A stretch of 64,000 nucleotides of DNA from Candidatus Eiseniibacteriota bacterium (GCA_963725865.1 CAVSAC010000014.1:389298-453297), one strand, 5' to 3'. Shown: positions 51,674-64,000, counted from the stretch's first letter. Notes: generated from the sequence alone by a model not told the origin. Numbers and translations: made by a program.

Positions 51674-52591
51674 CTATCTTCCGGATAGCGCCTTGGCCAT
51701 CGACGACACCAGGACGTCGAACTTGGTGAAGACGTCGTTCGTTCCGGGCACGCCGCCCACTTCGGTCGCGACCTCCACGGCGGTCCCGCCGGCCCGCTTG
51801 GCCACCTCGTTGCTGGCGTCCGCGCTGTAGTACGGCTGATACACGATCACCTTGACGCCCGCCTTCTTCATCGCCTCGGCCAGCTCGGTGATGTGTCGCG
51901 GGCTGGGCGGGATGCCGGGCTTGGGCTCGACGGTGCCGAAGAGCTTCAGCCCGAAGCGATCGGCGAAGTAGTCGAAGTTCCGGTGATACGGCACGACCGA
52001 CGCCCCCTTGTACGGCGCCAGCTCCTTCTCCCACTTCGCCAGCGATGCCTCCATCCTTTCGTCGAAGGCCTTGGCGTTCGCGGCGTACTCCGCCGCGTTC
52101 GCAGGGTCCAGCTGAGAGAAGACGTCCGCCAGGTGGTTGGCCACCACCTCGAGGTTCTTCGGATCGGCGTAGTAGTGCGGATTCCCGAGCGGGTGGATGT
52201 CCCCCTCCGCCCGGCTGACCGTGCCCACCGGCTTCTCGAGCACGTCGATCCCTTGTGAGGCGTCCACGAAGCCCTTTGTGCCCGGCTGGATCTTGGGATT
52301 GCGGCTGCCGGGAAGGACCAGCGGCAGCCAACCGCCGTCCAGTTCCAGGCCGGTCGACACGAACACGTTCGCGTTCTGGATCGCCTTCATCAGGCTGGGC
52401 TTCGCCGGAACAAAGTGCGGATCCTCGTACCCCCGGCAGAGGCTCTGGGCCGTCACGTGCCTTCCACCCACGAACTGGGCGACGGAAGCGAGATCGGTCA
52501 ACGACGTGGCGACCTTCAGGTCCGCGAGCGCAGGTGCCGCGGCCAGCAGGCCCAGCACCGTTACAACCGCGCAACGAAGCAGCGACTTCAT
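51674..52591 (-). CDS. Metal ABC transporter substrate-binding protein (ZnuA/TroA family)
   Basis: GGAGGA RBS. Signal peptide MKSLLRCAVVTVLGLLAAAPALA. Metal-binding His residues (DPHFV..., HPLGNPHYY). 305 aa. Confidence 0.8.
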   Translation of the reverse strand: MKSLLRCAVVTVLGLLAAAPALADLKVATSLTDLASVAQFVGGRHVTAQSLCRGYEDPHFVPAKPSLMKAIQNANVFVSTGLELDGGWLPLVLPGSRNPKIQPGTKGFVDASQGIDVLEKPVGTVSRAEGDIHPLGNPHYYADPKNLEVVANHLADVFSQLDPANAAEYAANAKAFDERMEASLAKWEKELAPYKGASVVPYHRNFDYFADRFGLKLFGTVEPKPGIPPSPRHITELAEAMKKAGVKVIVYQPYYSADASNEVAKRAGGTAVEVATEVGGVPGTNDVFTKFDVLVSSMAKALSGR

Positions 52592-52652
52592 GAAGTTCCT
52601 CCGATTCTTGAGTGTCATTGGCAGCACCATCCGTCGTGCGCGGGTCGTCGTC

Positions 52653-53753
52653 TCAGTACGCATGGGCCGGGTGATAACCGATCGTGTAGCTCATCTGGAT
52701 CATGATCCGGTCGTCGCTGGGCTTGATCCCGTTGCCGCCGTCCGCCTGGGCGTGGCTGTACTCGAGTCGGACGAACGAGAACTCCGAAGGCGTCCACGCG
52801 AGGTTGGCCGAGAAGCGGTTCACCTTGCCGGCGATCGGACTGCCGGCGCCGTCGACCAGGAAGTCCGTGAAGCTGTTGCGGGCCTGCTCGGCGCGGATGC
52901 CGGTCCACCAGACCTGTGAAGCGCGATACTGGAACGAGAGGTACCCGCCGTCGCCTTCCCGCGCGTAGTTGCCTTCGGCCGACGAGCCCTTCTGGAGGTA
53001 TTCGCTCTGGAGGATCCATCCGCGCCGGTTCGAGTTCCTCGCAGGGACGTTTCGAAGCGTCACGTCGGCGCCATAGGCCGCATGCCGGGCACCATCAGTT
53101 CCGCGACCCTGCAGGATGGACTGACCGAGCTCCATCGTCGTTGCGTCGTTCACGTCAAACTGGTTCTTGAAGTGCCCCAGGTACGGCACGTTGTCGTGCC
53201 GGGTGGACCCGAAGTCGAGCGGGTGGTCGTCATCGGTGGCGATGGCCTCGTAGACGCCTCCCGTCAGCTCGGAGAACCAGGGCAGTGGCGTGAGCCACGA
53301 GGCTTCCGCACCGGCATCCTTGAACCCTTCCCCGCCGATGGTGTTTTCCATGACGATCGGACCCTGGATGAACGGAAACGCGTGGGTGTGGAGCAGCCCG
53401 TGCTTTCCGAACGTGCCGCGGATCTTCCCGAGCTTCAGCTGGATGCCGGGGATGTTGGTGCTGCGGACCCAGACTTCCTCGGGGTCCACCGTCCCGTCCC
53501 CCACGAAGACGATGTTGCTCACGAAGGTCCAGTACGGATCCACAACGGAGATGAGGCTGATCTCCGCCTCGTCGAAATGCAGCCCGTAGGGTTGGTTGAT
53601 GTTGCGGGCGGCCTGCCCGGAGAAGAGGGCGTTCATCCCCATCGCCGGGTTTGCCAGGTTCGAAAACATCGATGACGTCTGGGCAGTCGCGAGCGCTGGA
53701 ACGCAGGCCAGCACGACGACCAGGCAGGCAAGCATGCGAAGTCTCATGCGCAC
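52653..53753 (-). CDS. Outer-membrane beta-barrel (porin-like) protein, probably metal-regulated
   Basis: Signal peptide MRMRLRMLACLVVVLACVPALATA. Alternating amphipathic strands. C-terminal aromatic (…HPAHAY). 366 aa. Confidence 0.55.
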   Translation of the reverse strand: MRMRLRMLACLVVVLACVPALATAQTSSMFSNLANPAMGMNALFSGQAARNINQPYGLHFDEAEISLISVVDPYWTFVSNIVFVGDGTVDPEEVWVRSTNIPGIQLKLGKIRGTFGKHGLLHTHAFPFIQGPIVMENTIGGEGFKDAGAEASWLTPLPWFSELTGGVYEAIATDDDHPLDFGSTRHDNVPYLGHFKNQFDVNDATTMELGQSILQGRGTDGARHAAYGADVTLRNVPARNSNRRGWILQSEYLQKGSSAEGNYAREGDGGYLSFQYRASQVWWTGIRAEQARNSFTDFLVDGAGSPIAGKVNRFSANLAWTPSEFSFVRLEYSHAQADGGNGIKPSDDRIMIQMSYTIGYHPAHAY

Positions 53754-54256
53754 TGTTCCTCCTGAGAGTAGGAAGGACGAAGCGGTCCCGCTGCGTCCTG
53801 GATTCCGTTCACGGTCATGCGAAGGAAGGCCGGGGAGATCTCGGGCATTGACGCCGAGTTCCCCAGCCTTCTTGAGATAATGTGCTGCTGCTCATAATGC
53901 GTGGGATTCAGCTTGCCGAACCCCACGCGGTACTTGCCGCCCTTGAGCGCGAGGCTGGCCGGCAGGCCGCGGTTCATCTGGAAGAATCCCTCTTCGAGCG
54001 TCATCCCGTCGGCGCCGAGCGAGCCGACGAACGTCCCCCGCGCGTACGGATTCAGCGCGGCGTCGAACACGAACTCGGTCTCGCCGGCGTCGAGCGTCGC
54101 GCGCTTGCTCGCCGGGTCGCCGGCGGCGTCGGTCCAGCGCGCGAGTGGCTGGCCGATCACCGAGATGTCGGGGTTGACCACGCCGGCGCGCGCGGTCGCG
54201 GCGAGCGCCGCGCCCAGCGCCATCGTGGCGATGAGTCTGAACAGTCGTCGAAGCAT
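53744..54256 (-). pseudogene. Truncated paralog of the adjacent outer-membrane beta-barrel gene (only the N-terminal ~130 residues are homologous)
   Basis: Signal peptide MLRRLFRLIATMALGAALAATARA. Region ...GKYRVGFGKLNPTHYEQQH aligns with the downstream protein's ...GKIRGTFGKHGLLHTHAFPF. The reading frame runs 10 nt into the next gene's start. Confidence 0.4.
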
Positions 54257-54366
54257 GGAGCCGCCTCCGTCGGAAACGGATGTCGGACCGCCGGCGTCGC
54301 CCGGTGGGGGACGCGCGGAGTCGTGAACGCGGAGTGGAGACCGCGGCGCGGGCCGCGGCGGAGCGT

Positions 54367-54693
54367 TCAGCCGCGCGGAGGCGCGCGCGGGTCGCCGCAC
54401 ACGCGCGTCGCGGAGACGGGCGCGAGCGCGGCGGGCGCGAACAGCGGGGACGGCGTGAACGGGGCCGGCGGAGTCGCGGTGATCGTGCTCGCCACCACGG
54501 CCGCGCCGTGGAGCGCGGCGCACGCCACGCACGGGTGCGCGGCCGGGCCGTGGCCCTCGCCACAATCGGGATCGGTGAGGTGATGCCACAGGTGCGCGGC
54601 GCCGCCGAGCACCAGCACCGCGATCAGCAGCAGCGCGGACGCGCGACGGGCGGGCCGGCGAGGAGGCGTGGGGTGGAGGGTCTCACGGTCCAT
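54367..54693 (-). CDS. Small membrane-anchored Cys/His-containing protein (DUF2946-like?)
   Basis: TM (ALLLIAVLVLGGAAHLW) then HHLTDPDCGEGHGPAAHPCVACAALHG. The family assignment is a guess based on size, the Cys/His pattern and adjacency to a TonB receptor. Confidence 0.3.
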   Translation of the reverse strand: MDRETLHPTPPRRPARRASALLLIAVLVLGGAAHLWHHLTDPDCGEGHGPAAHPCVACAALHGAAVVASTITATPPAPFTPSPLFAPAALAPVSATRVCGDPRAPPRG

Positions 54694-55155
54694 GGGAGGC
54701 GGGATTCTTCCACGAAGCGACCGGGCGCGGCAAGACCCAAGCGGCACCCAAGCGGCACGGCCGCGACGATGTCCAGACGATGTGTGCCCGGTGGTGCTTC
54801 GCCCCCGATGGGTCGCCGGGTCGTCGGCCGCGCGTGGCTGAAGCCGCGTGCAAGCGCTGCCGATGACCCTCGGAGCGGACCCCCTCCCGTTTGTCGGTGC
54901 CCGACGGGCGCTGATACGATGCGCTCACCCCCCACGGAGGGGACGTGTACCACCGTGGTTCCACACGCGCGGACGCCGCTCGTCGCGGTACTCCGCAGGA
55001 CCTTCGCGCCGTCGCGATGTCGGCGCGCATCGGCTCCTTCGCATCCTCCCCGACCATCCATCCCATCCCGGCCTCGCATCGATCCGGCGCCGCTCCGTGT
55101 CCTGCCGGCGGCGGTTGCGCGCAGTTCGATCGTGCGATGGTCCCGGAGATCTCCC

Positions 55156-56283
55156 ATGTCCGCCCATGATGCGAGCCCCCGCTCGGTGATCGAGCGGGGT
55201 GATCTCGACCGGCTCCTCTCGGCCCTGCGCGAGCGCGGCTACTCGGTCATCGGCCCGGTGCGGCGCGGCGACGCGATCGTCCTCGACACGATCGAGTCCG
55301 CCGCCGACCTGCCCGCGGGCTGGACCGACGAGCAGGAGGCCGGTCACTACCGATTGCGACGGCGCGACGACGACATGCTGTTCGGATACAACGTCGGCCC
55401 GTGGTCGTGGAAGCGCTTCCTGTTCCCGCCCGCCCTGCGTCTGTGGCAGGCGCGGCGCGTCGAGCGCGGTTTCGAGCTGGTGGAGGACGGCGCCCGCGCG
55501 CCGCGCTACGCATTCCTCGGCGTGCGCGCGTGCGAGATCGCGGCGCTCGCGATCCACGACCAGGTGCTCACCGGCGGTCCGTACGTCGATCCCGAGTACC
55601 GCGAGCGCCGCGCCCAGGCGTTCATCGTGGCGGTGCCGTGTGTTCAAGCGGGCGCGACGTGCTTCTGCGCCTCGATGGGCACCGGGCCCGCGGTTCGCGA
55701 GGGCTTCGACCTGGCGCTCGCCGAGGTGGTCGAAGGCGGCCGTCACATGTTCGTGGTCACGGTGGGCTCGGAGCGCGGCGCCGAGGTGATGGAGGACGTG
55801 CCCCACCGGCCGGCGGTCGAGGCCGACGTGGCCGCCGCCGCCCGCGCGGTGGAGGGCGCCGCCCGGATGGGTCGCACGCTCGACACCGAGGGGCTCGCGC
55901 CCCTGCTCGCCAAGCAGCACGAGCATCCGCGCTGGAACAAGGTCGCCGAGCGCTGCCTGACGTGCGGCAACTGCGCACTGTCGTGCCCGACCTGCTTCTG
56001 TCACACGGTCGAGGACCTCGCGGACCTCGGCGGCGAGACCGCCGAGCGCGTGCGCCGCTGGGACTCGTGCTTCTCCCTGGAGTTCTCGTTCATCCACGGC
56101 GGCAGCGTGCGGCCCTCCGCGCGCTCGCGCTATCGCCAGTGGCTGACCCACAAGCTCTCGAGCTGGCACGACCAGTTCGGGTCGTCGGGTTGCGTCGGAT
56201 GCGGTCGGTGCATCACCTGGTGCCCGGCCAAGATCGATATCACCGAAGAGGTCCGCGCGATCCGCGAAACGCAGCGCGCGTGA
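55156..56283 (+). CDS. hydB: [NiFe]-hydrogenase group 3b (sulfhydrogenase-type) beta subunit, 4Fe-4S cluster protein
   Basis: Cys clusters CLTCGNCALSCPTCFC and CVGCGRCITWCP. 375 aa. First gene of hydBGDA. Confidence 0.7.
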   Translation: MSAHDASPRSVIERGDLDRLLSALRERGYSVIGPVRRGDAIVLDTIESAADLPAGWTDEQEAGHYRLRRRDDDMLFGYNVGPWSWKRFLFPPALRLWQARRVERGFELVEDGARAPRYAFLGVRACEIAALAIHDQVLTGGPYVDPEYRERRAQAFIVAVPCVQAGATCFCASMGTGPAVREGFDLALAEVVEGGRHMFVVTVGSERGAEVMEDVPHRPAVEADVAAAARAVEGAARMGRTLDTEGLAPLLAKQHEHPRWNKVAERCLTCGNCALSCPTCFCHTVEDLADLGGETAERVRRWDSCFSLEFSFIHGGSVRPSARSRYRQWLTHKLSSWHDQFGSSGCVGCGRCITWCPAKIDITEEVRAIRETQRA

Positions 56284-56294
56284 GGAGGTCCGCC

Positions 56295-56768
56295 GTGCAG
56301 ACACTGGAACCGATTCTGACCGAGGCTCCGTTCTTCCAGGGCATGAAGCACGAACACCTGGCGCACCTCTCGGGCTGCGCATCGAACGTGCGTTACGAAC
56401 CCGACGAGTTCCCGGGGCGCGCCGGCGATCCGGCCGACCGCTTCTGGGTCGTCCGGCAGGGCCGCGTGGCGCTGGAGATCCACGCCCCCGGGCGCGGGGC
56501 GATCACCATCGGCACCATGGGTGAAGGCGATGTCGTCGGCTTCTCCTGGCTGCTGCCGCCCTATCAGCTGCGTTTCGACATCCACGTGCTCTCCGCGACG
56601 CGCGCGATCATGTTCGACGGGCGCTGCCTGCGCGGAAAGTGCGCCACCGATGCGGAATTCGGATACGAGCTCCTCAGCCGCTTCTCGCGGCTGATGGCGG
56701 AGCGCCTGGAGTCCATGAGCCTGCAGCTCCTGGACGTCTATGGCGACCACTATGCCGACCATGACTGA
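56295..56768 (+). CDS. Stand-alone cyclic-nucleotide-binding (CAP-effector) domain protein inserted in the hydrogenase operon
   Basis: GAGGAGG RBS then GTG. FFQGMKHEHLAHL...GDPADRFWVVRQGRVALEI...GTMGEGDVVGFSWLL matches the cNMP-binding beta-barrel pattern. 157 aa, no DNA-binding HTH. Confidence 0.6.
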   Translation: MQTLEPILTEAPFFQGMKHEHLAHLSGCASNVRYEPDEFPGRAGDPADRFWVVRQGRVALEIHAPGRGAITIGTMGEGDVVGFSWLLPPYQLRFDIHVLSATRAIMFDGRCLRGKCATDAEFGYELLSRFSRLMAERLESMSLQLLDVYGDHYADHD

Positions 56769-57621
56769 ACCGATCGCCCCGGAGACACGTGCCACGGCCG
56801 CGCCGATGCGGCCCGCGCCGTGGCGCATCGTCCGGACCAGCACGGAGACCCGGGACACCTTCACGATCACGCTCGAGCCGGAGGATCCCAAGACGACGTA
56901 CGCGTTCCGGCCCGGGCAGTTCAACATGCTCTACACGTTCGGGGTCGGCGAGGTGCCGATCTCGATGAGCGGCCCGCCCGGCGACGGCCGGCGCGTGATC
57001 CACACCCTGCGCGCCGTCGGCCCGGTGACGCAGACCTTCCACCGCCTCAGGCGCGGGGACGTCGTCGGCCTGCGCGGCCCGTACGGCACCCCGTGGCCGG
57101 TGGACGGCGCGAAGGGCCACGACATCGTGCTGGTCGCCGGCGGCATCGGGCTCGCCCCGCTGCGCCCGGCGATCTACCACGTGCTCGCCCACCGCGCGCA
57201 GTACGGGCGCGTGGTGCTGCTGTTCGGCGCGCGGACGCCCGACGACATCCTGTTCGCGCGCGAGCTCGAGAACTGGCGCGGGCGCTTCGACATCGATGTC
57301 GGCATCACGGTGGACCGCGCGCAGCCCGGCTGGCACGGGCACGTCGGGGTCGTCACCACGCTCCTGCCGCGCGCCCCGCTCGATCCCGCCAACACGGCCG
57401 CGTTCGTGTGCGGCCCCGAGATCATGATGCTGTTCGCGGCGCGCGACCTCGAGAATCGCGGCGTGCCGAACGCGCGCATCTGGCTGTCGATGGAGCGCAA
57501 CATGAAGTGCGCGGTCGCGCTCTGCGGTCACTGCCAGTTCGGTCCCACCTTCATCTGCAAGGACGGCCCGGTGTTCCGGTACGACGCGCTGGCGCCGCTC
57601 CTCGCCGTGCGGGAGCTCTGA
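56761..57621 (+). CDS. hydG: Hydrogenase gamma subunit (FAD/NAD(P)-binding, C-terminal 2Fe-2S)
   Basis: [19 protein letters not shown] (FAD), [11 protein letters not shown] (NAD(P)), C-terminal [20 protein letters not shown]. Start overlaps the upstream stop. Confidence 0.7.
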
Positions 57622-57623
57622 TC

Positions 57624-58421
57624 ATGGCCGCGACGACCCGCAAACCCCGCCTGGCGGTCTGGAAGTTCGCCTCGTGCGACGGCTGTCAGCTCTCGATCCT
57701 CGATTGCGAGGACGAGCTGATGACGCTCGCCGGAGCGGTCCACATCGCCAACTTCGCCGAGGCGTCCCGCGCCATGGAGAAGGGCCCGTACGACCTGTCG
57801 CTGGTCGAGGGCTCGATCACCACGCCCCACGACGCTGAGCGCATCCACGCCGTCCGCCGCGCCTCCAAGGTGCTGGTCACCATCGGCGCCTGCGCCACCA
57901 CGGGCGGCATCCAGGCGCTCCGGAACTTCGCCGACGTGAAGGAGTGGATCCCGATCGTCTACGCCCGCCCGGAGCACATCGAGACGCTCCGCAACTCCAC
58001 CCCCATCGCGAACCACGTGCTCGTGGACTACGAGCTGCAGGGCTGCCCGGTGAACAAGCACCAGCTGCTGGAAGTGGTGCGTGCGTTCCTCGCCGGGCGG
58101 CGGCCGGTGCTTCCCGCATACAGCGTCTGCACGGAGTGCAAGCGCCGCGGTACCCCGTGCGTCGTCGTGAACTCGGGCCTGCCGTGCATGGGCCCGGTGA
58201 CGCGCACGGGCTGCGGTGCGCTGTGCCCGTCCTACGCCCGCGGGTGCTACGGCTGCTTCGGCCCGGTGCGCGGCGCCAATACCGCCGCGCTCGGCGACGT
58301 CCTCCACGGCCTCGGCCTCGACGATCCGGCAGTCGTCCGCGCGTTCCGCGGATTCAACGCCGGCTCCGAGGCGTTCCGCAAAGCGAGTGAATTCCATGAG
58401 CAGCGCCACCACGGCCAGTAA
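57624..58421 (+). CDS. hydD: [NiFe]-hydrogenase small (delta) subunit
   Basis: [10 protein letters not shown]...GACATTGG proximal-cluster Cys ligands, typical of short group-3 small subunits. 266 aa. Confidence 0.75.
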
Positions 58422-59709
58422 GCGCAATCGTTCCGTCGAGGTCGACGTGCTCGCCCGGGTCGAGGGCGAGGGCGGCATCGACGTCCGGATCCACAAGGGC
58501 GAAGTGACCGAGGTGAAGTTCCGCATCTACGAGCCGCCGCGCTTCTTCGAGGCGTTCCTGCGCGGGCGCTCGTACACCGAGGTCCCGGACATCACCGCGC
58601 GCATCTGCGGGATCTGTCCGGTCGCCTACCAGATGAGCGCGGTGCACGCCATCGAGCGCGCGTTCGGGGTCCAGGTCACGGGACCGCTGCGCGCGCTGCG
58701 GCGGTTGCTGTACTGCGGCGAGTGGATCGAGAGCCACGCGCTCCACATCTACCTGCTCCACGCTCCGGACTTCCTCGGGTACGAGAGCGGGATCCACATG
58801 GCGAAGGACCACGGCGACGCCGTGACCCGCGGCCTGCGGCTCAAGAAGACCGGCAACGCCCTCGTGACCGTGATCGGCGGCCGCGAGATCCATCCGCTCA
58901 ACGTGCGGGTGGGCGGCTTCTACCGCGCGCCCTCGAAGCGGGAGCTGCGCGGGCTGCTCGACGAGCTGCGCTGGTCCCGCGAGGCGGCGATCGAGACGGT
59001 GCGGCTGGTGGCCGGCTTCACGTTCCCCGATTTCCAGCGGGACTACGCGTTCGTGGCGCTCCGGCATCCGGACGAGTACCCGTTCAACGAGGGACGCGTG
59101 GTCTCCAGCCTGGGACTCGACATCGACGTCAGCGACTACGAACGCCACTTCACCGAGGAGCATGTCCAGCGCTCGAACGCGCTCCATTCGACCATGCGCG
59201 AGCACGGTCCGTATCACGTGGGCCCGCTCGCGCGCTACAGCCTCAACTTCGACCGGCTCTCGCCGATCGCCCAGGCGTGCGCGCGGGACGCGGGACTGGG
59301 GACGGAGTGTCGCAATCCGTTCCAGAGCATCGTCGTTCGCGCGGTCGAGACGGTGCAGGTCGTGGACGAGGCGGTGCGCACGATCGAGGCGTACGAGGAG
59401 CCCGACTCCCCGTCCGTGCAGGTGGAGCCGAAGGAGGGCGTGGGATGGGGCGCGAGCGAGGCGCCGCGGGGGATGCTCTACCACCGCTACCGTCTCGACG
59501 CGGCCGGGCTGGTGCGGGAGGCCAAGATCGTGCCGCCGACCTCGCAGAACCTGCGCACCATCGAAGCGGACCTCATGCGCTACGTCGCCAGTCATCTGGA
59601 ACTCGACGACGCGGCGCTCACCTGGGGATGCGAGCAGACGGTGCGCAACTACGACCCCTGCATCTCGTGCGCGACCCATTTCCTGCGCGTGCACATCGTG
59701 CGGGAGTGA
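58396..59709 (+). CDS. hydA: [NiFe]-hydrogenase large (alpha) subunit
   Basis: N-terminal [10 protein letters not shown] (L1 CxxC). C-terminal DPCISCATH (L2 DPCxxCxxH). 437 aa. Confidence 0.8.
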
Positions 59710-59722
59710 CACGGAGGCCCCG

Positions 59723-60181
59723 ATGCTGCGGGTGATCGGCGTCGGCAACGAGTTGCGCGGCGACGACGCGGCCGGGCCCCGGGTGATCGCGCACCTGCGG
59801 GCCCGCGCCGTGCCGGGACTCGCGGCCGTGCAGTGTCCGGCCGAGCCCGCGGCGCTGATGGAGGCGTGGCGGGAGGCCGACCACGTCGTCGTGGTGGACG
59901 CGATGCAGAGCGGGCGGCCGCCGGGCGCGGTCACGCGGTTCGACGCCACGCACACGCCGCTGCCGGTGTCCGGCTTCCGCTCCTCGACCCACGGCCTCGG
60001 CATCGCGGACGCGGTCGAGCTGGGACGCGCGCTCGGCCGCCTGCCCGCGCTGCTGGAGGTGATCGGCATCGAGGGCGCGGGCTGGGAACAGGGCGCGCCG
60101 CTGGACCCCGCCGTGGCGCGGGCGGTGAAGCAGGTGGTGGAGGCGCTCGTCCGCGACGCGGCCGGCGGCGGCGCGGGCTGA
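59723..60181 (+). CDS. Hydrogenase maturation endopeptidase (HycI/HoxW-like)
   Basis: MLRVIGVGNELRGDDAAGPRV...VVVDAM...THGLG motifs. 152 aa. Confidence 0.7.
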   Translation: MLRVIGVGNELRGDDAAGPRVIAHLRARAVPGLAAVQCPAEPAALMEAWREADHVVVVDAMQSGRPPGAVTRFDATHTPLPVSGFRSSTHGLGIADAVELGRALGRLPALLEVIGIEGAGWEQGAPLDPAVARAVKQVVEALVRDAAGGGAG

Positions 60182-60206
60182 GTCCGCCCGGACGCCGGAC
60201 GCGCCA

Positions 60207-60236
60207 GAGGCCCGCGACCGCGTGGTCGCGGGCCTC
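60207..60236. terminator. Perfect 13-bp hairpin between convergent hydrogenase operon and POT transporter gene
   Basis: GAGGCCCGCGACC-gcgt-GGTCGCGGGCCTC. Confidence 0.5.
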
Positions 60237-60260
60237 GCGCGTGGTGCGGGAGGCGGCCGC

Positions 60261-61721
60261 CTACACGTTCGCGCTCTCGTACTTGCGGATCCACAGCGAG
60301 TAGAGCCAGATCCCGACCGCCGAGGCGAACCCGATCGCCACGAACGGGTACCACACTCGGTACGGATGGTAAGTGGTCCAGAGCAGTTGCGTGGCCGCGT
60401 TGGGGTCGAGGTTCAGCACGCGCTCGAGCGACTCGACCGCGTTGGTGCGGTCCACGCCCGCCGGCACGCCGCCCGCCTTCTGCTCCAGGTAGCGCAGCGC
60501 CAGCCCCGCCTTCTCGCCGAGGCGCTCGTAGAAGTAGGCGCCCATCGCCGATGCCGCGACCCATCCGATCGCGAACGGCATGTTGGCGTAGCCCATGTAG
60601 AGCGCCTTCTTGCCCTCGGGAGCGATGACGCCGAGGTACTCGTTCATCTTGGGGCTCGACAGCATCTCGCCGAGCGCGAAGATCGCGATCCCGAGCAGGC
60701 ACATCCAGCCCGACTGGCTGAAGCCCGCCACGAACAGCCCCGCGGATGCGATGAGGATGCCGATGAAGATCGACTGCACCCGCTTCATGCGCGACGCGAG
60801 CGACGACACCCACACCACCAGCAGCACGATCAGCCCGGCGTCGAGGTTGATCATCCACTCCTGCGACACCATCGGCCCGCGCGGCGTGGGACTGGTGAAC
60901 ACCGAGGAGAGGTGGAGCGCCTGCACCACCGAGCGCGAGTCCACCCAGTCGACGATGAAGTTCGGCAGCAGGTCGTAGAGCTGCATGAACATCAGCCAGA
61001 AGCACGACATGATGAGGATGAAGCTCAGCAGCTGGGGGCGGAACAGGTTCACCGCCGTGGTCTTGAGCACCTGCATGACGCCGCCGGTCTGCGTGCCGCC
61101 CGCCGAGACCCCCGGGTACGTGAACAGCATCAGGTAGTTCAGCGACAGGATGGCCGCCGAGCCGGTGAAGACCATCGGCCACGACAAGCCGCGCAGGAAG
61201 TGCGCGAGCGGCGGCCCCAGGAATCCGCCCACGTTCACGACCATGTAGAACATGCCCCACCCGACCGAGGAGTTCTTCTCGGTCAGGCTGCGCACCATGG
61301 TGCCCTGCAAGCCGGGCTTGAAGATCGCGGTGCCGAGTCCGACGGTGCAGCAGCCCAGCATGAACGGCAGGTACGCGCGCTGCGTCGCCATCAGCACGTA
61401 ACCGAGGATGGTGATGGTGGTGGCGATGGCGATGGTCTTCTTGTAGCCGAAGCGGTCGGCGAAGCCGCCCGAGACGATCGGCACGCCGGCCTGCACCGCC
61501 GCCCACCAGGCGTAGATCACGCCCTTCTGCGCCATGGTGAAGTGCAGCCCGCCTGGCTCGTCGGCCTGCGCGATGTAGATCGGGACGACCACGCGCACGC
61601 CGTAGTAGGCGAGGCGCTCGAACATCTCCATGATGTTCGCCATCCAGAACGGACGCTTCAGCAGCGCGAGCTGGGCGAGTGCGCCGTGCGGCGTTGCGGC
61701 GGTATCGGACGCGTTCGACAA
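60261..61721 (-). CDS. Proton-dependent oligopeptide transporter (POT/PTR2 family MFS, DtpT-like)
   Basis: PTR2 signature region MEMFERLAYYGVR...KPGLQGT. ~14 TM helices. 486 aa. Confidence 0.75.
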   Translation of the reverse strand: MSNASDTAATPHGALAQLALLKRPFWMANIMEMFERLAYYGVRVVVPIYIAQADEPGGLHFTMAQKGVIYAWWAAVQAGVPIVSGGFADRFGYKKTIAIATTITILGYVLMATQRAYLPFMLGCCTVGLGTAIFKPGLQGTMVRSLTEKNSSVGWGMFYMVVNVGGFLGPPLAHFLRGLSWPMVFTGSAAILSLNYLMLFTYPGVSAGGTQTGGVMQVLKTTAVNLFRPQLLSFILIMSCFWLMFMQLYDLLPNFIVDWVDSRSVVQALHLSSVFTSPTPRGPMVSQEWMINLDAGLIVLLVVWVSSLASRMKRVQSIFIGILIASAGLFVAGFSQSGWMCLLGIAIFALGEMLSSPKMNEYLGVIAPEGKKALYMGYANMPFAIGWVAASAMGAYFYERLGEKAGLALRYLEQKAGGVPAGVDRTNAVESLERVLNLDPNAATQLLWTTYHPYRVWYPFVAIGFASAVGIWLYSLWIRKYESANV

Positions 61722-61945
61722 GGTGGCTCCTCCGGGTCGGGACCGCGCCGGGGCGCGGCGGCCGTGGGCGTGGCCGGGAGTGGCGCGACCACGCGAAGCG
61801 CGCCGCGGTCACGGCGCGCGCGGAGCATGCCCCGGCGGCGCCGGCGCGTCCATCCGGATCCCGACCGGCGCGGGAGTCCGCCGGACGCACGGCGGGCGGC
61901 CCGTGGGGCCGCCCGTTTCGGATCCCTTCGCGTGCGACGCCGGCG

Positions 61946-62665
61946 TCACTGCGCCTGGATCGTCACCTTGTTGATGAGCAACGGTTCGGTCGGATGCCCG
62001 CTCGGAGTGCCCTGGGCCTCGAGCGCGGCCAGCACGTCCATGCCCCCCGACACCTCGCCGAAGATCGTGTGCTTGCCGTCGAGCCACGGCGTCGGCACGA
62101 ACGTGAGGAAGAACTGGCTCCCGTCGGTCCCTTCGCCCGCATTGGCCATCGAGAGCAGCCCCGGCCGGTCGTGCTTCACGCCGGCCTTGAACTCCCCGCC
62201 GAACTGGTAGCCCGGGCCACCCGTGCCGGTGCCCAGCGGACAGCCGCCCTGCGCCATGAACTTGCTGATCACGCGATGGAAGGCGAGCCCGTCGTAGAAG
62301 CCGAGCTTGGCGAGATAGATGAACGACGTGACGTGCATCGGCGCCACGTCGGGCATCAGCTTGATGAGCAGGTCGCCCTTGCTGGTGCTCATCACGGCGT
62401 AGTAGCTGTGCGCGGGCTCGAACGTCGCCACCGTGGGCTTGGACAGGTGGGTGCGCCAGTCCGGCTTCGACTTGTCCACCTTGGCGGCGGTGATCATGTC
62501 CTGGATCTGCTGCATCGCGAGTTCCTTGGGCTTGACGAGTGGGGTGGCGGGCGTCCCCTGCAGCACGCTGGGCGCCGGGGACGCCGGGGTCGGCGTCCGT
62601 GTCGGCGTCGGAGCACCCGGGGCGACGACTGCCAGCACGAGCAGAAGGGAGAGCCAGGGGGTCAT
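61946..62665 (-). CDS. ppiA: Secreted cyclophilin-type peptidyl-prolyl cis-trans isomerase
   Basis: Signal peptide plus Pro/Thr linker. FHRVISKFMAQGGCP...GLLSMANAG...GSQFFLTF...HTIFGEV. 239 aa. Confidence 0.8.
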   Translation of the reverse strand: MTPWLSLLLVLAVVAPGAPTPTRTPTPASPAPSVLQGTPATPLVKPKELAMQQIQDMITAAKVDKSKPDWRTHLSKPTVATFEPAHSYYAVMSTSKGDLLIKLMPDVAPMHVTSFIYLAKLGFYDGLAFHRVISKFMAQGGCPLGTGTGGPGYQFGGEFKAGVKHDRPGLLSMANAGEGTDGSQFFLTFVPTPWLDGKHTIFGEVSGGMDVLAALEAQGTPSGHPTEPLLINKVTIQAQ

Positions 62666-62815
62666 GTCGCGTTCCTCGGTCGGCCGATGGTGAGGCGCGG
62701 GGAGCGGAGCAGCGCGCGGTGGCCGATGTACAGGCACGCGCGTGGCGGAGTACGGTACACGAGTGGCGGCATGCGGCCAACCCCCCTGGCCCCGCCGCAT
62801 GAGCCAGGAGCCCGG

Positions 62816-64000
62816 ATGCTCGAAGCACACACCCAGGACGTGGTGGTGGTGGGCGGTGGGATCGTCGGCCTGGCCACCGCGCGCGCGCTCCTGCACGGCA
62901 CCGGCGCCACCGTCGCGCTGCTCGAGGCCGAGAACACGCTGGCCGCCCACCAGACCGGCCACAACAGCGGGGTGCTGCACTCCGGGCTCTACTACCGGCC
63001 GGGATCCCTCAAGGCGCGCCTGTGCGGCGCCGGCCGCGAGGCGCTGCTGCGCTTCTGCGCCGAGCACGGGGTGGCGCACGAGCGCTGCGGCAAGGTGGTG
63101 GTGGCGACGCGCCCCGAGGAGCTGCCGCGGCTCGAGGAACTGGAGCGCCGCGGCCGCGCCAACGGCCTCGCGGGCGTGGCGCGGATCGGGCCGGAGGAGC
63201 TGCGCGAGCGCGAGCCGCACGCCGCGGGCCTCGCGGCGCTGCGAGTGCCCGAGACCGGCATCGTGGACTTCCGCGGCGCCTGCGAGGCGCTCGCCGCCGA
63301 GCTGCGCCGCGCCGGCGGCGCGGTGCACACCGGGGCGCGCGTCGAGCGCGTCACGCCGACCCCCGAGGGATTCACGATCGTGACCGGGCGCGGCGGACTC
63401 ACCGCGCGCCATCTGGTGACCTGCGCGGGGCTCCAGGCGGACCGTCTGGCGCGCGCGTGCGGCGTCGATCCGGGGGTCGCGATCGTGCCGTTCCGAGGCG
63501 AGTACCACGTGCTGAAGCCGGAGCGCGCCGCGCTGGTGCGCCACCTCATCTACCCGGTGCCCGATCCCCGCTTCCCGTTCCTCGGCGTGCACTTCACGCG
63601 CATGGTGCACGGGGGCGTCGAGGCCGGTCCGAACGCGGTGCTCGCGTTCGCGCGTCACGGCTACCGGCGCCGCGACGTGTCCCCGCGCGACCTCGCCGAG
63701 ATGCTCCGGTGGAGCGGCTTCTGGCGCCTCGCGAGCCGCCATCTCGCGATGGGATTCGAGGAGTCGTGGCGCTCGCACGTGAAGCGCGCGTTCGTGGCGG
63801 CGCTGCGGCGCCTGGTGCCCGACCTGCGCGAGTCCGACGTGATGCCGGGGGGCGCCGGCGTGCGCGCGATGGCGGTCGGGCCCGACGGCGCGATGCTCGA
63901 CGACTTCCACGTCGTCGAGGCCCCGCGCGCCATTCACGTGCTCAACGCCCCGTCGCCCGCCGCCACCGCCGCGCTCGCCATCGGCGAGCATCTCGCGGGG
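62816..64000 (+). CDS. lhgO: L-2-hydroxyglutarate oxidase/dehydrogenase (FAD-dependent), 3' end beyond window
   Basis: My own translation: MLEAHTQDVVVVGGGIVGLATARAL...HNSGVLHSGLYYRPGSLKARLC... with no stop to nt 64000. Not in the ORF track because it runs off the edge. Confidence 0.7.
   Translation, partial: MLEAHTQDVVVVGGGIVGLATARALLHGTGATVALLEAENTLAAHQTGHNSGVLHSGLYYRPGSLKARLCGAGREALLRFCAEHGVAHERCGKVVVATRPEELPRLEELERRGRANGLAGVARIGPEELREREPHAAGLAALRVPETGIVDFRGACEALAAELRRAGGAVHTGARVERVTPTPEGFTIVTGRGGLTARHLVTCAGLQADRLARACGVDPGVAIVPFRGEYHVLKPERAALVRHLIYPVPDPRFPFLGVHFTRMVHGGVEAGPNAVLAFARHGYRRRDVSPRDLAEMLRWSGFWRLASRHLAMGFEESWRSHVKRAFVAALRRLVPDLRESDVMPGGAGVRAMAVGPDGAMLDDFHVVEAPRAIHVLNAPSPAATAALAIGEHLAG

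Follow-up and report, generated by a model that had tools for sequence, protein, structure and literature searches.

A HoxI-like cyclic-nucleotide-binding-fold gene conserved in bacterial-type group 3b [NiFe] hydrogenase operons as a candidate fifth subunit

Group 3b [NiFe] hydrogenases occur widely among bacteria of soil and sediment, where their presumed task in hypoxia is either to discharge NAD(P)H-linked reductant or to provide it. To our knowledge, mechanistic insight into this group derives almost entirely from four-subunit archaeal enzymes. In group 3d, the soluble NAD+-reducing hydrogenase HoxFUYHI2 of Cupriavidus necator (Ralstonia eutropha) H16 contains a known further subunit, HoxI, a stand-alone protein of the cyclic nucleoside monophosphate (cNMP)-domain type; HoxI is reported to sit as a homodimer on the diaphorase module (HoxFU), to provide a site of NADPH activation, and to be easily lost during purification. 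The present analysis concerns a 64,000-nucleotide stretch from a Candidatus Eiseniibacteriota bacterium (GCA_963725865.1, CAVSAC010000014.1:389298-453297; hereafter the window), in which a complete group 3b operon at 55156-60181 carries a gene for a stand-alone protein with a cyclic-nucleotide-binding (CNB) fold between its beta and gamma subunit genes.

Comparable genes have been mentioned for 3b clusters in print. A small cNMP-domain gene (Francci3_4499) lies between the two diaphorase genes of the 3b cluster of Frankia casuarinae (PMC11879354), the same gene is listed in the 3b cluster of Rhodococcus equi 103S as WP_013415449 (PMC13332983), and a 3b-cluster gene of the methanotroph 'M. acidophilus' 29 is named 'HoxI' (PMC12319191). 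These three belong to other phyla than the window, and they share with it the operon type and, where stated, the gene position; no functional test of the CNB protein in a 3b enzyme was found in the literature. An earlier reading of the window, made from the sequence alone (the sequence-only reading), had held that a cyclic-nucleotide-binding protein encoded in this way is not part of described 3b or 3d operons. Both HoxI in the 3d enzyme of C. necator and the three 3b mentions contradict that statement, and the group into which the enzyme falls is largely one where such a subunit is already known.

The CNB gene and its operon

The CNB gene (56295-56768, + strand) begins with GTG and encodes 157 amino acids, here regarded as a HoxI-like candidate fifth subunit. 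As the sequence-only reading had noted, it lies between the beta and gamma genes with a ribosome-binding site of its own, GAGGAGG (56282-56288, + strand, read from the sequence), which begins within the beta stop codon and is separated from the start by 6 nt. Compared with the locus of a close relative (L001), the ratio of nonsynonymous to synonymous substitution rates (dN/dS) of the CNB gene is 0.14, the lowest among the six operon genes, indicating a real coding sequence under strong purifying selection; the operon genes other than the protease gene span 0.14-0.28. The maturation protease gene (59723-60181) evolves much faster, with 61% amino acid identity to L001 and a dN/dS of 0.56.

Related loci were surveyed by large-subunit alignment with one genome per species; at least 600 loci matched, and the best 80, at 59-68% identity, were kept. 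Gene order was scored by tblastn, and 76 of the 80 loci had enough upstream sequence to be informative. The order beta, CNB, gamma, small, large was found in 74 of these 76, from Acidobacteriota, Binatia, Chloroflexota, Bacteroidota, Ignavibacteria, Zixibacteria, Brocadia, Alphaproteobacteria and one Bathyarchaeia metagenome-assembled genome (MAG). Across the surveyed loci the beta stop and the CNB start are a median of 2 nt apart, and the CNB gene typically ends directly at the gamma start or runs past it. The beta-CNB-gamma arrangement is likewise annotated on plasmids of Burkholderia, Paraburkholderia, Pandoraea and Rhodococcus (the Rhodococcus large subunit being 55% identical to that of the window) and occurs on long metagenomic contigs.

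Since the same slot is filled in 74 of the 76 informative loci, the CNB gene is the rule rather than an insertion, and the sequence-only reading of it as unusual, together with the idea of a lineage-specific insertion, is set aside. The CNB gene is a conserved component of this bacterial 3b operon type, of which the window is a typical member and not an exception. The two remaining informative loci differ from each other: in an Anaerolineae MAG (L071, 4224-6222) gamma directly follows beta with no CNB gene, and in a Verrucomicrobiae MAG (L028) a lone large-subunit gene was found, with beta, gamma and small subunit genes not detectable within 6 kb on the same strand. A separate peculiarity is seen in Candidatus Brocadia sp. 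AMX1 (L030, 3696-7000), where a 3.3-kb insertion between the small and large subunit genes encodes, on the opposite strand, an 849-aa repeat-rich and apparently secreted protein.

Six co-oriented open reading frames (ORFs) on the + strand make up the operon, in the order beta, CNB, gamma, small, large and protease, and their Pfam and NCBIfam assignments agree with the complete group 3b-like operon proposed for 55156-60181. The beta subunit gene (55156-56283; hydB/hyhB-like) encodes a 375-aa AsrA-like protein of the 4Fe-4S dicluster type (Pfam Fer4_22, 113 bits), for which ShyB, HydB and AsrA are the best NCBIfam families, each scoring under its equivalog cut-off. The gamma subunit gene (56740-57621; hydG/hyhG-like) encodes 293 aa with FAD/NAD(P)-binding and 2Fe-2S regions (Pfam NAD_binding_1 and DHODB_Fe-S_bind; NCBIfam hydrogenase gamma, AsrB, ShyC and HydG), and homology with L001 offers an alternative start at 56752. 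Following it are the small subunit gene (57624-58421; hydD/hyhS-like, 265 aa, Pfam Oxidored_q6, NCBIfam ShyD and HydD best) and the [NiFe] large subunit gene (58396-59709; hydA/hyhL-like, 437 aa, Pfam NiFeSe_Hases, NCBIfam ShyA best). The CxxC motifs of the large subunit are intact, as had been claimed: L1 reads RICGIC (58600-58617, residues 69-74) and L2 reads DPCISCATH (59653-59679, residues 420-428), both on the + strand. The last gene (59723-60181) encodes a hydrogenase maturation endopeptidase of 152 aa (Pfam HycI; TIGR00072 at 110.8 bits against a cut-off of 47). The tight coupling by overlapping starts that had been described throughout the operon applies to two junctions only, CNB/gamma (17 or 29 nt, depending on the gamma start) and small/large (26 nt), the others being gaps of 2-13 nt.

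The pairing of an AsrA-like 4Fe-4S beta subunit and an AsrB-like FAD/NAD(P) 2Fe-2S gamma subunit with small and large subunits, taken with the scores of the large subunit against known structures, places the enzyme in group 3b, in line with the sequence-only reading. In the PDB, the large subunit scored best against the alpha subunit of Pyrococcus furiosus SHI (9nez and 9e15, ~223 bits) and the cytosolic enzyme of Thermococcus kodakarensis (5yxy, 221 bits), compared with 173 bits for group 3c MvhA, 143 bits for group 3d HoxH (5xf9) and at most 144 bits for FrhA. NCBIfam gave the same ranking, with ShyA at 287 bits and HydA at 244 against FrhA at 144 and VhuA at 143; the equivalog cut-offs were all missed by a wide margin, so that the enzyme is related to the archaeal ones without being their equivalog. 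The closest GTDB representative has a large subunit of 68% identity. As judged from its sequence, the locus is a standard bacterial-type operon for a cytosolic, bidirectional, NAD(P)-linked group 3b [NiFe] hydrogenase with predicted activity; relatedness to SHI does not imply sulfur reductase activity. The absence of hyp genes from the window, also noted earlier, was confirmed in that tblastn with HypA, HypB, HypC, HypD, HypE and HypF from B. savannae and C. necator gave no match better than E = 0.01 in the 64 kb, while the same queries match 7-21 of the 80 related loci.

Fold, family and cassette of the CNB protein

The CNB protein reaches 36.3 bits with the Pfam profile PF00027 (cNMP_binding), above the gathering score of 27.5; the match (E = 5.5e-9) covers profile positions 2-88 of 89 and is the sole Pfam match of the protein at E <= 0.01. 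An AlphaFold2 (AF2) model based on 118 homologues (predicted local distance difference test, pLDDT, 90; predicted template modelling score, pTM, 0.83) consists of N-terminal helices, an eight-stranded beta-roll and a 30-residue C-helix at the end. Neither the Pfam scan nor the model contains a helix-turn-helix (HTH) or other output domain within the 157 aa, and both thus agree with the earlier description of a cNMP-binding domain alone. The best Foldseek matches, with probability 1.0, are Mycobacterium tuberculosis CRP, GlxR and stand-alone CNB domains; PKG is matched at this probability too. The window protein therefore has its fold in common with the sensor domains of CRP/FNR factors such as Escherichia coli CAP, M. 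tuberculosis CRP and Corynebacterium glutamicum GlxR, whereas those factors carry a C-terminal HTH DNA-binding domain that it does not have. In CRP, the long C-helix mediates dimerisation.

The family is large and uniform in size: a word-indexed search returned 2,202 matches, nearly all of 150-160 aa, and an exhaustive profile search yielded 495 clusters (50% identity) at E <= 1e-30. The family profile scored 42 bits against HoxI, 30 against E. coli CRP and 19 against FNR, with hand-entered sequences for the latter two. The motif G-x-S-W-x-x-P-P and a C-terminal QLLDVYG-H motif are retained throughout, including the Rhodococcus, fused and Streptomyces members. The copy on a plasmid of Rhodococcus sp. 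BH4 lies in synteny identical to that of the window and keeps G-x-S-W-x-x-P-P; the actinobacterial protein is about 28% identical to that of the window and is without the two cysteines of the window's clade. A free-standing family member with the motif and 36% identity (tblastn) is encoded on the Streptomyces sp. SAT1 plasmid NZ_CP016083 (L093, 5001-5453). No hydrogenase is encoded close by. Around it lie genes for universal stress proteins, a CBS protein, a PNPOx-family protein, an alcohol dehydrogenase and a GAF sensor kinase, a setting that resembles a neighbourhood of the hypoxia or dormancy type.

The signature of cAMP binding in CAP comprises E72, R82-S83 and T127/S128 (PMC10187061). The corresponding phosphate-binding-cassette region of the CNB protein (56538-56588, + strand, residues 82-98, GFSWLLPPYQLRFDIHV) is remodelled and reads G82-F83-S84-W85-L-L-P88-P89-Y-Q-L92-R93-F94-D95, and the pattern of the family, counted in an alignment of 91 sequences, is G-[W/F]-S-W-x-x-P-P...F-D. 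G82 is present in 91/91, S84 in 88/91, W85 in 90/91 and P89 in 90/91. Position 83, the column of CAP Glu72, is Trp in 77 and Phe in 7 sequences, the window having Phe; the column is aromatic (Trp, Phe or Tyr) in 85 of the 91, and Glu is never among the top four residues counted. Position 92 is Trp in 63 and Leu in 15, position 93 is His in 41 and Arg in 30, and where the canonical cassette has Ser/Thr-Ala, F94 is found in 79 and D95 in 73. The Glu column is placed alike by two HMM (hidden Markov model) alignments, one to HoxI without gaps and one to E. coli CRP with a single gap; on the Arg column the two lie one residue apart. No Arg-Ser/Thr pair occurs in the cassette under either the HoxI-based or the CRP-based alignment, and the cassette ends in R/H-F-D. 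Because the E72 and R82-S83 signature of CAP is not kept, canonical binding of cAMP or cGMP by the CNB protein appears unlikely, which makes the cAMP/cGMP-binding part of the sequence-only reading doubtful.

Possible roles of the CNB protein

Natural fusions of the CNB domain to the beta subunit are the strongest computational sign that the two proteins associate. Thirteen clusters (90% identity) of beta::CNB proteins were found (P0155 and P0271-P0282), mostly of 539-546 aa with one of 720 aa, and each consists of a full beta subunit, a linker of about 15 residues and a CNB domain; their identity falls as low as 49%, and the ENA, JGI and Logan samples that yielded them are independent. On a 153-kb contig (JGI 3300032118 Ga0315277_10000079; L096/L097, 6001-8184) the fusion lies within a complete operon, followed there by a free 133-aa CNB gene, gamma, small, large, protease and HypF. 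The fusions came only from searches of representatives and homologues, and no in-frame beta-CNB fusion occurs among the 80 surveyed loci. Long stop-free ORFs in the surveyed loci were rejected as fusions, being frame-mismatched artefacts of high G+C content. Tandem CNB proteins were also observed: P0122 and P0128 contain two copies, each with G-W-S-W-x-x-P-P, and would be consistent with a dimeric unit, while P0158 has three and P0121 five repeats, on short contigs and with the looser variants LGWSAV or LGWGAV...EP or RP.

Taken together, the fusions, the translational coupling and the precedent of HoxI suggest that the CNB protein is a dimeric accessory subunit that docks on beta. The reading preferred here, with moderate confidence, is accordingly that of a standard 3b operon whose conserved CNB protein is a non-catalytic dimeric accessory subunit on beta, analogous to HoxI, with a remodelled pocket that probably does not sense cAMP or cGMP. 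In mechanistic terms, a CNB dimer would dock on the beta subunit of the diaphorase module in a non-catalytic role, and its pocket, with aromatic residues in place of the cAMP-contacting Glu and the Arg-Ser pair, would probably respond to neither cyclic nucleotide. The pocket may bind another ligand, for which a pyridine nucleotide is the obvious candidate by analogy with HoxI; alternatively, the role of the protein may be purely structural or that of a dimerising module. Physical association with the enzyme, the dimeric state, the ligand and an effect on activity are all inferred.

Several observations weigh against this reading. By BLASTP the window protein and HoxI share only 31% identity over 81 aa (E = 5e-7), the generic level of the domain, and HoxI retains Gly-Glu in its cassette, whereas the window family has Gly-Trp/Phe-Ser-Trp...Pro-Pro; given similarity at the domain level and the absence of the HoxI Glu from the family, functional analogy and not orthology is claimed. 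A tblastn search of plasmids with the CNB protein at E <= 1e-3 did not recover pHG1. The 3b enzymes studied biochemically, archaeal and mycobacterial, are described as four-subunit, and the locus tags of Mycobacterium smegmatis Hyd3, MSMEG_3931-3927, run consecutively through beta, gamma, delta, alpha and protease (PMC2799521), leaving no annotated gene between beta and gamma, so that the CNB protein is not indispensable for 3b enzymes generally. The survey is biased to the clade of the query, its large subunits having an identity of 59% or more. For a natural beta::CNB fusion, an AF2 model reached a pTM of 0.67, with low confidence in the Fe-S region, and speaks neither for nor against docking. 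Finally, the window protein carries Arg93 near the canonical Arg position, which leaves room for phosphate binding and hence some doubt over the loss of cAMP/cGMP binding.

That doubt bears on the possibility that the CNB protein is a genuine cAMP or cGMP receptor, through which second messengers would regulate the hydrogenase allosterically. The passing of the Pfam cNMP_binding threshold, the nearness of the fold to cAMP-bound M. tuberculosis CRP and to GlxR, Arg93 itself, and a Thr-Ser pair of the C-helix at the position of CAP T127/S128 in some family members all fit such a receptor. It is nonetheless considered unlikely, given the aromatic residues in the Glu72 column and an Arg column of Trp/Leu or, one column over, of His or Arg followed by Phe-Asp; moreover, other ligands are known for CNB domains whose cassette is altered, as in the cAMP-independent trypanosome PKA regulatory subunit, which was among the fold matches. 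A thiol switch is a different proposal, in which C28 and C111 would report oxidative conditions to the O2-sensitive enzyme. Of the 91 sequences of the window's clade, 89 have C28 and 87 have C111, and the two cysteines, at the start of beta-1 and just after beta-8, should be close together by CNB topology. Both are missing from the Rhodococcus operon member, from the domains of the fused lineage and from the Streptomyces paralogue, and the pair is therefore rejected as a core feature of the family; a switch could operate only in the cysteine-bearing clade, and as an explanation of the family it is improbable.

Two further proposals concern the making of the enzyme and of its transcript. As an assembly or maturation factor of the diaphorase, the CNB protein would assist FAD or Fe-S insertion, or docking, and be absent from the mature enzyme. 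The gene's place between two cofactor-bearing diaphorase genes and the four-subunit composition reported for the studied 3b enzymes suit this idea, and a subunit lost as easily on purification as HoxI is reported to be would look alike. A permanent fusion to beta, tolerated and maintained over long divergence, fits it poorly, however, and nothing resembling a known assembly factor for Fe-S clusters or flavin was found with Pfam, NCBIfam or Foldseek; such a role is rated as quite unlikely. Least probable, and very much so, is an HTH-less regulator of the CRP/FNR type that would control transcription of the operon via a partner protein. It is suggested by source annotations of homologues as CRP/FNR family regulators, by the wording 'a small transcriptional regulator' in the Frankia paper (PMC11879354) and by a conserved block with an inverted repeat upstream of the operon (see below). 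A DNA-binding domain is absent, the gene is translationally coupled between two structural genes, a diverged lineage fuses it covalently to beta, and regulators are not normally required in the amounts of an enzyme subunit, all of which argues against such a regulator.

A bolder form of the accessory-subunit reading is held as tentative and clearly less probable: bacterial 3b hydrogenases would be five-component enzymes in which the CNB protein has lost cNMP binding, its aromatic pocket senses a pyridine nucleotide or redox metabolite, and the dimer on beta gates activation or the direction of H2 turnover. If so, the four-subunit model drawn from Pyrococcus and M. smegmatis would be revised, and a second family of CNB-type hydrogenase subunits, independent of HoxI, would be added. 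Were the CNB protein a true fifth subunit, present models of the activation and regulation of bacterial 3b enzymes would be incomplete, and its gene should be part of any heterologous expression aimed at H2-driven NADPH regeneration.

Surroundings of the operon and comparison with described systems

About 205 nt before the beta start lies a conserved block (54912-54970, + strand) with the inverted repeat CCACGG-N15-CCGTGG. Some 55 nt of it are about 90% identical to L001, and the rest of the intergenic region barely aligns; its core (54932-54951) occurs once in the window and, among 98 loci, only in L001. Rfam gave no match for the block, which may be a promoter or operator. Scans of 54300-60500 for sigma-70 promoters and intrinsic terminators found none, such scans being uninformative at the ~70-74% G+C of this DNA. 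The flanks at 51674-54589 (- strand) and 60261-63991 are syntenic with L001. Upstream are a ZnuA-type binding protein and two outer-membrane-like ORFs, the second of which (53744-54589) ends oddly at the C-terminus and is possibly truncated; downstream are a major facilitator superfamily (MFS) transporter, a secreted cyclophilin and a DAO-type oxidoreductase. G+C content is ~64-66% over 48-54 kb compared with 70-74% over the operon (54-60 kb).

Set beside the described systems, the CNB gene is near-universal in operons of this type and has already been noticed in print. The enzyme shares homologous alpha, beta, gamma and delta subunits with the archaeal 3b hydrogenases, P. furiosus SHI and the T. 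kodakarensis cytosolic enzyme; those are described as four-subunit. HoxI is a parallel for the CNB protein of the window, both being stand-alone, about 160 aa long, free of any output domain and encoded within the operon of a cytosolic NAD(P)-linked group 3 hydrogenase. They differ in the enzyme that they accompany, which is of group 3d with a Complex I-type HoxFU diaphorase for HoxI and of group 3b with AsrA/AsrB-type beta and gamma subunits in the window, and in gene position, the HoxI gene following that of the protease and the CNB gene of the window standing between beta and gamma.

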